From: Kofleriaceae bacterium
GTDB taxonomy: Bacteria > Myxococcota_A > Polyangia > Haliangiales > Haliangiaceae
DNA length: 64,000 nucleotides
Assembly: GCA_964203225.1 (NCBI GenBank)
Contig: CAXNMK010000002.1
Coordinates: forward strand, 609,664 to 673,663
Direction of reading: 5' to 3'
Part shown: positions 52,401-62,089 of the stretch, in pieces
Layout: every line of letters begins with the position of its first letter
How positions within the stretch are numbered: the stretch's first letter is position 1
The notes under the pieces: generated by a model
The model's database searches: none
Seen by the model: the letters and a program-made list of their open reading frames with translations, nothing else
Told to the model about the DNA's origin: nothing
Made by a program: the position numbers and the translations under genes

Positions 52401-53528
52401 CTACAGCGCGCCGGTCGCGACAATCGCGATCGCGGCGATCACGAGCGCGATCGCGGCGGCGAGGCCGATCACGAGCAGCCGCGGCGGACCCTGGGTGGCG
52501 AGCGTGATCGCCTGGTCGGCGCCTGGTACCGGGGGGGGCGGGGCGGCTGCCCCGGGCGGGCTCGCGGCGAGCAGGGGACCGGCGGCCGGCGCCGAGCGCG
52601 GATCGCGCGCGGCGAGGAAGCCGAACTGCAGCAGGCGCGGGCGCGGGCCGCCGAGCTCGAACGTGCACACGGCCTCGGTCGCGCGGCCGGGCTCGACGCG
52701 GAAGTACACGCTGCTCGCGGAGCTCGCCATCAGGTACAGGCCGAGGCCGGCGCCGCCCGTCTTGCGATCGATCTGCTGCTCCTCGTGGAGGCACTTGTGG
52801 AGGTAGCGCAGCACGGTGCCGCGCTCGAGGCGACCGAACGCATCCCGCACCGCGATCGCGAACCGGATCCCGTCGCACGCGTAGTGGACGATCGCCTCGT
52901 GCTCGTGGGGGAGCGCCTTGCGGTCCGCCGGCGCGACGTCCGCGAACAGCGGGCGGCCCGCGGCGTCGACGGGCGCGTCGTACAGCGCGTTCATCAGCAT
53001 CTCGTCGAGGCACTGGCCGATCATCTCGCGGTACTTGCGGCGGACCTTGGTGGCCTCGGCGAACGCGAGCACGTCGTCGATGCACTGCGCCTTGCCGGCG
53101 TAGTCACCCACCCGGACCTCGAACAGGTCCGCCTGCCGGGTGACGAACGGCTCGAGGCCGAACGCCTCGCCCTCGAGGATGCGGCTGGCGAGCCCCGCCA
53201 GCTCCGCGTGATCGAGCCCCTCGGCGATCAGCACGGCGTGGATGTGGTCGCTCGCGCGCATCACCTCGACGAGGAGCACGAGGTCCGTGCGGGGGATGAT
53301 CGCGATCGCGGGCACGCCCGGCGGCAGCCTCGCGAGGAGGGCGACGACGTCGGCGGCGCTTCGTTCGCCGATGTGCAGGACCACCAGCGCCAGCGGCTCA
53401 GGTCCGATCCCCCCGAGGGCGGCCCGGCGCTCCACGGACCGATCGGGCCCCGCCAGCACGCCGGCGACAAGCTCGCCGAACGCCTGGTCCGGGGACACCG
53501 CGATGATGCGACGTGTGGCCACGCTCAC
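52401..53528 (-). CDS. pseudo-receiver domain + GHKL (HATPase_c-like) ATPase with a C-terminal TM helix
   Basis: The receiver-like fold lacks the phospho-acceptor Asp (ALVVLHIGE). The GHKL motifs are an N box (EMLMNALYDA), G1 (CDGIRF) and G2 (GGAGLGLYLM). The C-terminus is the TM helix LLVIGLAAAIALVIAAIAIV. A GTG start is proposed at 53528. Confidence 0.55.
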   Translation of the reverse strand: MSVATRRIIAVSPDQAFGELVAGVLAGPDRSVERRAALGGIGPEPLALVVLHIGERSAADVVALLARLPPGVPAIAIIPRTDLVLLVEVMRASDHIHAVLIAEGLDHAELAGLASRILEGEAFGLEPFVTRQADLFEVRVGDYAGKAQCIDDVLAFAEATKVRRKYREMIGQCLDEMLMNALYDAPVDAAGRPLFADVAPADRKALPHEHEAIVHYACDGIRFAIAVRDAFGRLERGTVLRYLHKCLHEEQQIDRKTGGAGLGLYLMASSASSVYFRVEPGRATEAVCTFELGGPRPRLLQFGFLAARDPRSAPAAGPLLAASPPGAAAPPPPVPGADQAITLATQGPPRLLVIGLAAAIALVIAAIAIVATGAL

Positions 53529-53545
53529 AAGGAGTGTACCGCGAC

Positions 53546-54082
53546 TCAGACCACGATGCCGCCCGACCGGCTGACCCAGGCGGTCGGATGAAACGGCGGG
53601 ATCGGGAGCGCGGTCAGGATCGGGGAGCCCTCCGCCCAGAACGAGCGGAACGGGCGCTTCTCGCCGGTCTGGTAGAAGTGCATCAGGTACGCGCAGTCGC
53701 ACGCCGCGAAGTCGGCGACCCACTGATCGAGGTCGTGGACCCCGGCGTCGTGGAGGAGCTGCAGGCTGTAGCGGCAGGCTTCGGCCTCGTAGCTGGACAC
53801 CTCGGCGAGCTGCGCCGCAGACCACGTGCCGGGCGTCATGAACGCGATCCGGCGCGCCTCCTCGGAGACGTTCCACTGGACCGTGTGGCCGAACAGGTGC
53901 ACGAGCACGAACAGCGCGTCCTCGACCTCGAGATCGAAGTCGATGTGGATGTGCTGGCCATCGAGGTCGCCCGTGAACGGGTTCGGCACGTCGCGGATCG
54001 ACACCGGGATCCCCCAGCGCTGCTCGATCATCCGCTCGACCTTGTCGAACACGACCCGCAGGCGGTCGGGGTTCGGGCTCAT
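53546..54082 (-). CDS. hypothetical protein (178 aa)
   Basis: The ATG overlaps the upstream stop (ATGA). The composition is normal and it contains HLFGHTVQW. Confidence 0.5.
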   Translation of the reverse strand: MSPNPDRLRVVFDKVERMIEQRWGIPVSIRDVPNPFTGDLDGQHIHIDFDLEVEDALFVLVHLFGHTVQWNVSEEARRIAFMTPGTWSAAQLAEVSSYEAEACRYSLQLLHDAGVHDLDQWVADFAACDCAYLMHFYQTGEKRPFRSFWAEGSPILTALPIPPFHPTAWVSRSGGIVV

Positions 54083-61309: not shown

Positions 61310-61324
61310 GTTCGTGACTCCTGC

Positions 61325-62089
61325 TTACTCGGTGACCTTGGTGGGTTCGCTGCGCTCGGTCTCGGCGGGGCCGAGGTCCTTGGCGGTGGCGATCACGGGC
61401 GTGGTCTCGGGCGCGCGCATGCCGAGCTCGACCTCGAGGTCGCGCAGCGCGTCGTCGGCCATCGACTGCTCCATCTTCTCCTCGGCGACGATCTTGTCGA
61501 GGCCCTCGTTGGAGAGGTCGCTGGCGACCCGCGCCTTGCCGCGGTTGCCATCGATCTTGCGCTGGATGACGTCCTCGAGCTGACCGAAGTCGGTCGTGAC
61601 GTCCATGTTGAAGCTCTGGGTGAGCTTCGCGACCTCGGCCTCGGCCTCGCTCATCTTGAGCTCGGCGTCGTACTTGGAGATCTTGTCCTTGACCTCGACC
61701 AGCTTCTTGTTCGCGAACTGGATCTTCTTGAGGTTGTTCTGGTAGGCGCCCTCGTGCATCGCGAGCTGCTGCTGGTTCTCGTCGAGCGTGGCCTTCGCCT
61801 TGGTCAGCTGCAGCGCGAAGCTGCCCGCCGTCTCGCGATCACCCGCCTTGAGGTAGGCCTTGGCCTGAGCCTGGAGCTTGGCGATCTCCTTCTCCCCGTC
61901 CTTGACCTGCCGAGACACCCGCTCCACCAGGCCGCGGTACTGCTCGAGGCCAATGCGGCCTTCCTTGAGCTGCTCGACCGCCTGATCGTACTCGTACTGC
62001 ATCTGGGCGATCGGGTCGGCCTCCCAGAAGTAGTTCGCGAGCTTGTTGAGCTGAGCCCGGATCGCACCAAAGAACTTACCCAGAATCAT
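61325..62089 (-). CDS. PspA/IM30 (Vipp1) family protein, a bacterial ESCRT-III-like protein
   Basis: The ATG at 62089 has a GGAGG SD. The N-terminus (MILGKFFGAIRAQLNKLANYFWEADPIAQMQYEYDQAVEQL) aligns with PspA (IFSRFADI...EDPQKLVRLMIQEMED). The rest is a long coiled coil. Confidence 0.7.
   Translation of the reverse strand: MILGKFFGAIRAQLNKLANYFWEADPIAQMQYEYDQAVEQLKEGRIGLEQYRGLVERVSRQVKDGEKEIAKLQAQAKAYLKAGDRETAGSFALQLTKAKATLDENQQQLAMHEGAYQNNLKKIQFANKKLVEVKDKISKYDAELKMSEAEAEVAKLTQSFNMDVTTDFGQLEDVIQRKIDGNRGKARVASDLSNEGLDKIVAEEKMEQSMADDALRDLEVELGMRAPETTPVIATAKDLGPAETERSEPTKVTE

Follow-up and report, generated by a model that had tools for sequence, protein, structure and literature searches.

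A conserved bacterial operon joining PspA to a tandem AAA ATPase and an ABC importer, with a possible role in ATP-driven PspA turnover

Whether a bacterial polymer of the ESCRT-III superfamily can have an ATPase partner of its own is the question raised by nine genes (52401-62089, minus strand) in a 64,000-nucleotide stretch of the genome of a Kofleriaceae bacterium (assembly GCA_964203225.1, contig CAXNMK010000002.1, positions 609,664 to 673,663; hereafter the window). At review level, a Vps4-like ATPase is said to appear "absent in bacteria" (PMC7619361), and the absence of such an ATPase is likewise stated elsewhere (PMC10936438). In the window, the gene of a PspA/IM30 protein shares an operon with those of a classical-clade AAA ATPase, an ABC transporter and a substrate-binding protein (SBP) fused to an OmpA-like domain. 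A preliminary description of the locus took this combination to be a new module. In fact, the same six-gene operon had been noted in silico by Ravi et al. (2024; mSystems 9:e00847-23; PMC11237479), whose Table S3 lists a Ca. Handelsmanbacteria operon (OGG56892.1) in the order PspA->PBPB+OmpA->TM(s)->ABC-ATPase->TM+Snf7->inactive-AAA+AAA, and who had already proposed the Vps4 analogy for a PspA-linked AAA protein. Our literature search found no experimental study of the operon. What is added here is a small gene (g7) following the AAA gene, the recurrence of another (g8), a conserved PspA tail and a candidate sigma-70-type promoter. The target is thereby sharpened to a PspA-AAA-g7 triad, with the PspA tail as a candidate docking site and a Cdc48-like ATPase that has a dead first domain. 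Among bacterial systems, this operon is the strongest candidate for pairing an ESCRT-III polymer with an ATPase, and it bears on how PspA/Vipp1 polymers are dismantled; it is also a candidate physical link among membrane repair, solute transport and the cell wall.

Gene content and conservation of the operon

Gene models were drawn by frame analysis of third-position GC (GC3), with starts set at frame switches; the window is ~70% G+C, which makes raw lists of open reading frames (ORFs) noisy. By GC3, minus-strand coding is unbroken from 62089 to 50926. The nine co-directional genes of the preliminary description were all recovered within 52401-62089, overlapping or at most 20 nt apart, the gaps from g1 to g9 being 15, 6, -1, 4, -4, 20, -4 and 17 nt; a further 116 nt separates g9 from the next gene, which encodes an FHA-containing activator. 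The lengths of the first eight products were reproduced by an independent gene caller on the identical public contig. A terminator scan found no intrinsic-terminator-like site on the minus strand inside the cluster, and there is no second copy of the operon within the window. Domains were called by Pfam and NCBIfam model searches of the window proteins, which bore out the domain list given earlier (PspA, SBP::OmpA, permease, ABC ATPase and classical AAA):

61325-62089, minus strand: g1, PspA/IM30 protein of the ESCRT-III superfamily (254 aa; PF04012)
59567-61309, minus strand: g2, SBP::OmpA fusion (580 aa; PF09084 and PF00691)
58493-59560, minus strand: g3, ABC permease (355 aa; PF00528)
57138-58493, minus strand: g4, ABC ATPase (451 aa; PF00005)
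56186-57133, minus strand: g5, predicted membrane-anchored, all-helical protein (315 aa; no family match)
54393-56189, minus strand: g6, tandem AAA ATPase (598 aa; PF00004)
54079-54372, minus strand: g7, small protein predicted to be helical (97 aa; no Pfam, NCBIfam or PDB relative)
53546-54082, minus strand: g8, protein with an HLFGH motif, predicted cytoplasmic (178 aa; no family match)
52401-53528, minus strand: g9, GHKL-like accessory protein (375 aa; HATPase_c_2 below threshold)

To place the operon among its relatives, a genome scan with one genome per species was queried with a 12-sequence alignment and returned at least 595 relatives among 600 candidate stretches, from which 80 loci were kept; g1-g5 were looked for by tblastn in loci with enough flank, and g7 by a profile hidden Markov model (HMM) in 82 loci. 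The genes g1-g5 are present at every assessable AAA locus of Myxococcota, Acidobacteriota, Gemmatimonadota and Planctomycetota. The order PspA, SBP+OmpA, permease, ABC ATPase, transmembrane (TM) helical protein and tandem AAA is shared by the loci of Myxococcota, Acidobacteriota and Gemmatimonadota. A permuted order, PspA-AAA-g7-SBP-permease-ABC-g5, is found with nothing lost in loci L075-L082 (most Planctomycetota) and in L076, from a metagenome-assembled genome labelled 'Deltaproteobacteria'. Conservation of the neighbourhood in relatives had been set beforehand as the test of the proposed module, and it was found in four phyla, the permuted arrangement included. This co-occurrence places the clustering of these genes far beyond chance and upholds the proposal of one conserved module that couples PspA to a classical-clade AAA ATPase, an ABC transporter and an OmpA-fused SBP.

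The extent of the module can be read from the same loci. The gene g5 was detected by profile in 70 of the 82, and g7 directly follows the AAA gene in 61 of them, including all those of Myxococcota, Acidobacteriota and Planctomycetota; the g7 profile found no copy in any Gemmatimonadota locus or in three loci of Gammaproteobacteria. In a variant from the Kofleriaceae/Haliangiales (L011, 647-6090), PspA-AAA-g7 is kept in a 9-kb locus without permease or ABC ATPase, next to divergent partners, namely an SBP_bac_11+VWA protein (581 aa) and a different TM-helical protein (263 aa). The same PspA-AAA-g7 run is present in L016 (9212-12100), whose contig ends ~140 bp past g7. Because L011, and L016 as far as its cut contig shows, keep these three genes where the permease and ABC ATPase are absent from the locus, PspA, AAA and g7 form an invariant triad, the Gemmatimonadota with their missing g7 aside. 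The module comprises seven core genes, g1-g7, with g8 as an accessory in three phyla. Accordingly, the earlier view of all nine genes as a single module stands for seven or eight of them but not for g9, which is confined to some Kofleriaceae, evolves fast and is truncated here.

Relatives of the ATPase (56-61% identity) also occur in Rhodanobacteraceae/Lysobacterales (L045, L063 and L066) with no partner genes in the available flanks. As L063 and L066 are cut close to the ATPase gene, these may represent a solo form or merely missing context.

The proteins of the operon

The tandem ATPase (g6) is matched by PF00004 at residues 339-464 (77 bits), and the second region of homology (SRH) that had been quoted for it is present at residues 443-463. 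Its C-terminal domain carries a Walker A motif (GPVGTGKS, with K348), a Walker B motif (DEAD, with D399/E400), the pore loop KYVGE and the Arg fingers R455 and R458. K348, D399/E400, R455 and R458 are invariant in 53 diverse homologues, and the N-terminal half keeps none of them; judged by its motifs, the C-terminal domain should be catalytically competent. The N-terminal domain (~residues 25-300) is degenerate, being devoid of Walker A and displaying HGNTFD and LIDHAG. When the two halves were compared by hhalign, they matched from the Walker B strand through the lid with a probability of 90-95% and E-values of 1e-6 to 1e-8; the match was obtained with 50%-cluster representatives, and none with close homologues alone (Neff 1.4). 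Because of this profile-profile match, the N-terminal half is identified, at the level of sequence, as a dead AAA domain and not as MIT.

In agreement with this assignment, Pfam gave no match to MIT or Vps4_C in g6. The NCBIfam scores were 61.8 bits for CDC48, 57.3 for PAN and 42 for CdvC (cut-off 650 for CdvC). The best 60 PDB relatives of the active domain comprise AFG2/SPATA5, Cdc48/VAT/p97, NVL, NSF and Rix7, with pore loop, Walker B and SRH aligning canonically, and include no Vps4, katanin or spastin. The suggestion of a Vps4-like ATPase with an MIT-type N-domain, which was to be settled by HMM classification, must therefore be given up: the N-terminal half is a dead AAA domain, CdvC scores below CDC48 and PAN, and the closest structures are of the Cdc48/AFG2 type. 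By these profiles, g6 is a Cdc48-like tandem AAA with a degenerate D1, which may work like Vps4 without being a member of the Vps4 family. Its relatives are numerous, with 854 clusters at E<=1e-30 among 1.8 billion cluster representatives, many of them full-length at 30-60% identity. The identity of g6 is 83-89% among Kofleriaceae and 50-63% across phyla, and that of g5 is 77-90% among Kofleriaceae, values that indicate strong purifying selection on both proteins in this family.

Some longer relatives of g6 (P0255, P0260, P0279 and P0288, 813-856 aa; P0388, 993 aa) have the dead N-domain in duplicate ahead of the active AAA domain, and one of this set carries an N-terminal Ser/Thr protein kinase domain. 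An apparent fusion of AAA with g7 (P0309) was rejected as a frameshifted assembly artefact and is no Rosetta-stone fusion.

The PspA protein (g1) matches PF04012 with 45.8 bits (cut-off 33.9), its residues 1-219 covering profile positions 1-215 of 220. An amphipathic helix lies at its N-terminus, its identity across phyla is 60-70%, and it is predicted to form a peripheral polymer of the ESCRT-III fold. In an alignment of 54 orthologues, its C-terminal tail (~residues 215-243; ...LEVELGMRAPETTPV..KDLGPA) is conserved, mostly past the Pfam match, and this tail (...FEVELGLRSPETTPV..KDLGPA) is kept in all four phyla and in the L016 variant. It is a plausible candidate for a docking peptide for the ATPase.

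The g5 protein has two short hydrophobic segments at ~residues 22-59 flanked by positive charges, from which both of its ends should be cytoplasmic. The remainder is helical, as is the whole AlphaFold2 (AF2) model (pLDDT 62), and the protein ends in a conserved tail, ELQxxTG...PxIL. The conserved tails of PspA and g5 both sit at or past the end of the folded domains. They form the sole region aligned by hhalign between g5 and the 54-sequence PspA alignment, with weak statistics (E 0.17, 21 columns). Ravi et al. regarded g5 as a divergent Snf7 (PMC11237479), a call that was not reproduced in any of six tests and stays a literature claim. There was no support for Snf7 in Pfam at E<=1 with 19 diverse orthologues, in profile searches of the PDB, or for Snf7/ESCRT-III in the hhalign comparison with PspA, and the AF2 model had no Foldseek match in the PDB at E<=0.001.

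The genes g2-g4 encode, by the families of their permease, ATPase and binding protein, a NitT/TauT-type ABC importer. g2 combines an NMT1/TauA/SsuA-like SBP (PF09084, 35 bits; partial NCBIfam matches to TIGR03427/TauA/SsuA) with a C-terminal OmpA-like, peptidoglycan-binding domain (PF00691, 52.8 bits), and its cross-phylum identity is 55-63%. Its N-terminal TM anchor is predicted to fix it to the inner membrane and its OmpA domain to fix it to peptidoglycan. The permease g3 is TauC/NtrB/SsuC-like (PF00528, BPD_transp_1, 71 bits; partial NCBIfam matches to TauC/SaoP/NtrB). The ATPase g4 is TauB/NrtD-like (PF00005, ABC_tran, 93 bits, the match being split by an insertion), and an alignment with 17 orthologues shows its Walker A, Q-loop, signature, Walker B and H-loop to be intact. 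The NCBIfam scores for TauB on g4 (198 bits) and TauC on g3 (105 bits) are both under the equivalog cut-offs and assign no substrate.

Two lineage-specific elaborations of the importer were observed. The insertion in g4 (57564-57821, residues ~225-310) adds ~75-90 Thr/Ser/Val-rich residues to the helical subdomain, immediately behind GLECRGV. It keeps the reading frame, has a GC3 close to 1 and is conserved within a subclade of Kofleriaceae (the window, L004-L006, L012 and L013), and it is absent from other Kofleriaceae and from all other phyla. Additionally, g3 (59260-59560) and g4 (58180-58493) have low-complexity, Pro/Ala-rich N-terminal extensions of ~100 aa, found in Kofleriaceae and missing from the orthologues of other phyla.

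The three small or accessory proteins show different degrees of conservation. g7 has the invariant residues W6, P13, F25, D31-G32, E38, Q42, H62, T66 and E71. In g8, H62-L-F-G-H66...Q69-W70...Y98-E99 is invariant, and the fold is possibly zincin-like without the catalytic Glu. This gene recurs in three phyla: it adjoins the operon in Kofleriaceae/Nannocystaceae, and it lies just upstream of pspA, in divergent orientation, in three Bryobacterales loci and one Planctomycetaceae locus. As to g9, the preliminary description saw in it a pseudo-receiver-GHKL ATPase with a C-terminal TM helix. The receiver-like N-terminus, an N-box-like DEMLMNALYDA and a G2-box-like GGAGLGLYL (both motifs read by eye) and the C-terminal TM helix were all recovered, but HATPase_c_2 matches below its cut-off of 27.4 bits, both here (16.5 bits; E 0.009) and in the L004 orthologue (19.1 bits), and a profile search of the PDB gave no match; a GHKL identity is plausible. 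Orthologues of g9 are restricted to 9 of the 15 Myxococcota loci that could be assessed; their identity is 46-53%, whereas the AAA protein of these loci reaches 82-87%. The orthologues are 713-723 aa long with periplasmic PEGA repeats, whereas the window copy of 375 aa stops right after the TM helix (compared with L004:12669-14810), so that g9 reads as a lineage-specific accessory, truncated here. In L007 and L017 there is no g9 and the FHA activator adjoins g8; this end of the locus is in flux.

Promoter, flanking activators and neighbouring genes

Upstream of pspA, cross-species alignment revealed the pattern TTGAG-N17-TAnnnT in 12 of 14 Kofleriaceae upstream regions, 21-59 nt before the pspA start and with the spacer fixed at 17 nt. 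The window copy falls under the threshold of a generic sigma-70 consensus scan, which returned nothing on the minus strand, so that the alignment is the only means by which it was found. The corresponding features, together with the activator gene that follows the operon, are:

62133-62161, minus strand: candidate sigma-70-type promoter (-35 TTGAGC, 62161-62156; 17-nt spacer; -10 TACCTT, 62138-62133)
62100-62096, minus strand: ribosome binding site GGAGG, with the pspA ATG at 62089
50926-52284, minus strand: FHA-Sigma54_activat-HTH_8 protein (Pfam domains), 116 nt downstream of the operon

The operon is therefore probably transcribed from a sigma-70-type promoter, to judge from this conservation. 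A -24/-12-like element (TGGGCA-N7-GC) had been proposed upstream of pspA, but it has 5 mismatches to the sigma-54 consensus and is at chance level. No site matching TGGCAC-N5-TTGCW with at most 3 mismatches lies in 62090-62320 upstream of pspA, and at this tolerance the whole window holds 141 sigma-54-like sites, fewer than the 175 in shuffled sequence. The FHA-containing sigma-54 activator does lie downstream on the same strand as described; the PspF-like role suggested for it is contradicted by the missing sigma-54 promoter, by the sigma-70-type promoter kept in 12/14 regions and by its own absence outside Kofleriaceae. It stands near the operon, at variable distance, in 8 of 14 assessable Myxococcota loci and is absent from the locus in the other phyla.

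An inverted repeat, GCGGGC-TTGA-GCCCGC (62150-62170), overlaps the -35 element. Several orthologues, among them L006 (CCGGTTGGC-TTGA-GCCACCGG) and L010 (CCCCATGCC-TTGAG-TGGGG), have a palindrome with other arms at this position, and the element may serve either as an operator or to terminate transcription of the gene upstream. The FHA-type activator is one of two sigma-54 enhancer-binding proteins flanking the operon. The other, of the receiver type, lies upstream with its 3' end at 63784-64000 and is full length on L001:926-2404. Neither is linked to the operon outside Kofleriaceae.

Among the remaining neighbours, the gene upstream of pspA (62321-63688) codes for a secreted, signal-peptide-bearing protein (~441-455 aa) with a C-terminal Phe and no Pfam match, which resembles an outer-membrane beta-barrel from the appearance of its sequence. 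It is kept upstream of the operon only in the close relatives L004, L006, L010 and L012 (54-63% identity). Downstream on the same strand (45998-50780) lie genes for a GlpD-like FAD oxidoreductase and a Kup K+ transporter (45998-48001), neither of which is linked to the operon in other genomes. In the oxidoreductase, DAO and DAO_C begin at residue 352 of a 904-aa ORF, and the true start is probably far later.

Possible mechanism, alternatives and known systems

The reading that we favour, and to which we give an even chance, is that the products of the operon use ATP to turn over a PspA assembly anchored at the membrane, and that this turnover is coupled to an importer tethered to peptidoglycan. 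PspA would assemble at the inner membrane, on its cytoplasmic side, at sites set by the wall-tethered transporter and by g5, which would be a hairpin-anchored inner-membrane protein with its helical domain facing the cytoplasm. The AAA hexamer would then grip PspA and/or g5 by their conserved C-terminal tails, possibly via g7, and pull subunits out with ATP, so that PspA would be turned over as ESCRT-III is by Vps4 in archaea and eukaryotes. The importer could supply a solute for envelope or osmotic stress, or act as a trans-envelope anchor or sensor. Gene content, domain identities, competent catalytic motifs, co-occurrence in several phyla and promoter conservation are shown by the analysis, and contacts among the proteins, the substrate of the ATPase and the identity of the solute are the conditional parts of this scheme; PspA is favoured as the partner of the ATPase because PspA-AAA persists where the transporter is missing.

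Several observations weigh against this turnover scheme. There is no direct sign of the ATPase touching PspA, whose place as the substrate we infer. As g6 lacks MIT and its nearer relatives are Cdc48/AFG2, not Vps4, other substrates could apply; moreover, at sensor 1, g6 (T-A-R-P-D) has lost the Asn of classical AAA proteins. The match between the PspA and g5 tails is the weak one given above. The Gemmatimonadota lack g7, which therefore is not an obligatory adaptor. Finally, the high identity across phyla may reflect horizontal transfer of the cassette.

A bolder form of the same idea, which we consider doubtful, is that the operon encodes a trans-envelope repair machine rather than a nutrient importer with neighbours. 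The SBP, pinned between inner membrane and peptidoglycan, would sense lost membrane-wall contact or a periplasmic damage signal, which the ABC transporter would relay to the cytoplasmic side, where g5 would nucleate a PspA polymer; the Cdc48-like tandem AAA, with g7 as a cofactor and the PspA tail as a handle, would recycle it. If true, bacteria would have evolved a counterpart of the ESCRT-III/Vps4 cycle independently, contrary to the reviews cited above (PMC7619361; PMC10936438).

The main rival keeps the ATPase and changes its client: g6 may be a Cdc48/FtsH/Msp1-style extractor or assembly chaperone for membrane proteins (e.g., transporter subunits or g5) or for a trans-envelope complex, with PspA only sealing and stabilising the membrane rather than serving as the substrate. 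We hold this to be unlikely overall. Its strength lies in the active domain, which is nearest to the Cdc48/VAT/AFG2/NVL/NSF unfoldases and, by NCBIfam, to PAN/FtsH, and in the lack of an MIT domain. In line with this, a chaperone-like role in assembling membrane complexes has been discussed for PspA-linked AAA+ proteins (PMC11237479), and g8, if zincin-like, would fit a quality-control module, although its HLFGH motif lacks the catalytic Glu of HExxH. What tells against transporter subunits as clients is that L011 (and L016 as far as its contig shows) keeps PspA-AAA-g7 with the permease and ABC ATPase absent from the locus, and that an AAA-PspA dyad occurs alone in Clostridium (PMC11237479). 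Because of these arrangements, the constant partner of the ATPase is PspA and not the transporter.

Three further explanations are each contradicted by specific tests. Were the operon two unrelated units, an ordinary importer of the taurine, sulfonate, nitrate or urea type would merely stand beside stress genes with no shared function; hitch-hiking genes are possible in operons, and the transporter parts are typical of NitT/TauT with intact catalytic motifs. This is nevertheless quite improbable, as the five partners are together at every assessable locus in four phyla even after permutation of their order, the genes overlap or nearly abut, and an OmpA fusion with a membrane anchor is atypical for a nutrient SBP; in addition, the variant locus has another SBP, a VWA fusion, in its place and has neither the permease nor the ABC ATPase. 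A classical psp-type regulon, in which the FHA-sigma54 activator would act as PspF on a -24/-12 promoter upon envelope stress, could draw on the two flanking enhancer-binding proteins and on the recurrence of the FHA-type one near the operon in Myxococcota. Myxobacteria encode many such activators, and with the conserved sigma-70-type pattern standing where a sigma-54 site is missing, the activator variably placed within the family and missing from the loci of every other phylum, and the operon devoid of PspB and PspC domains by Pfam, we regard such a regulon as very improbable. Hardly credible, in turn, is an anti-phage defence island around an IetA-like AAA ATPase. The PADLOC IetA models do match the AAA domain (E 4.5e-14), as does NCBIfam IteA (48.5 bits on g6), but both matches cover the generic AAA core only and the latter compares with a cut-off of 510. 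There is no IetS-like partner, no other defence model matched, and synteny with high conservation throughout entire phyla sets the cluster apart from patchy defence islands.

With the turnover of PspA by g6 as the favoured reading, the operon can be set beside known systems. The closest is that of Ravi et al. (PMC11237479), which shares with g1-g6 both the order and the architectures, down to the tandem AAA with one dead and one live domain and the SBP fused to OmpA. The published row stops at AAA, whereas here g7 follows AAA in three of four phyla and g8 recurs; the window copy adds the GHKL-like g9, the N-terminal low-complexity extensions of g3 and g4 and the g4 insertion, and the 'Snf7' call for gene 5 is not reproducible here. 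An Archangium gephyra cluster (AKJ06548.1; PMC11237479) and L011/L016 likewise have PspA with a periplasmic SBP and a TM-helical protein; the L011 variant differs from the window operon in having SBP_bac_11+VWA for NMT1+OmpA and no permease or ABC ATPase at the locus, the binding-protein pair being divergent. The Psp and Lia systems (E. coli pspF-pspABCDE and B. subtilis liaIH) also have a PspA/IM30 effector, and g5 could recruit it as PspBC or LiaI do. In contrast to them, this operon has no PspB, PspC, LiaI, PspF-type regulator or sigma-54 promoter, and it includes a non-transcriptional classical AAA ATPase and a transporter.

The operon resembles ESCRT-III with Vps4 (CdvB/CdvC) in placing an ESCRT-III-superfamily gene beside a classical-clade AAA gene, in the conserved C-terminal tails of the polymer subunits and, by analogy, in a predicted logic of ATP-driven subunit extraction. 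It departs from that system in that g6 has no MIT domain or detectable Vps4 signature, begins with a dead AAA domain and groups with Cdc48/AFG2, and in that the polymer is of the PspA and not the Snf7 type and is linked to an ABC importer and peptidoglycan. In methanogens, archaeal ESCRT loci also carry a gene for a ProX binding protein (PMC10936438). The best relatives of the active domain are the type II AAA unfoldases Cdc48/VAT/AFG2, with which g6 shares the two-AAA layout, the KYVGE pore loop and the double Arg finger. In g6, unlike in these unfoldases, the first AAA domain is dead, no double-psi-barrel N domain is present, and there is a family-specific C-terminal extension, QELAAxxECTDxxFLP.

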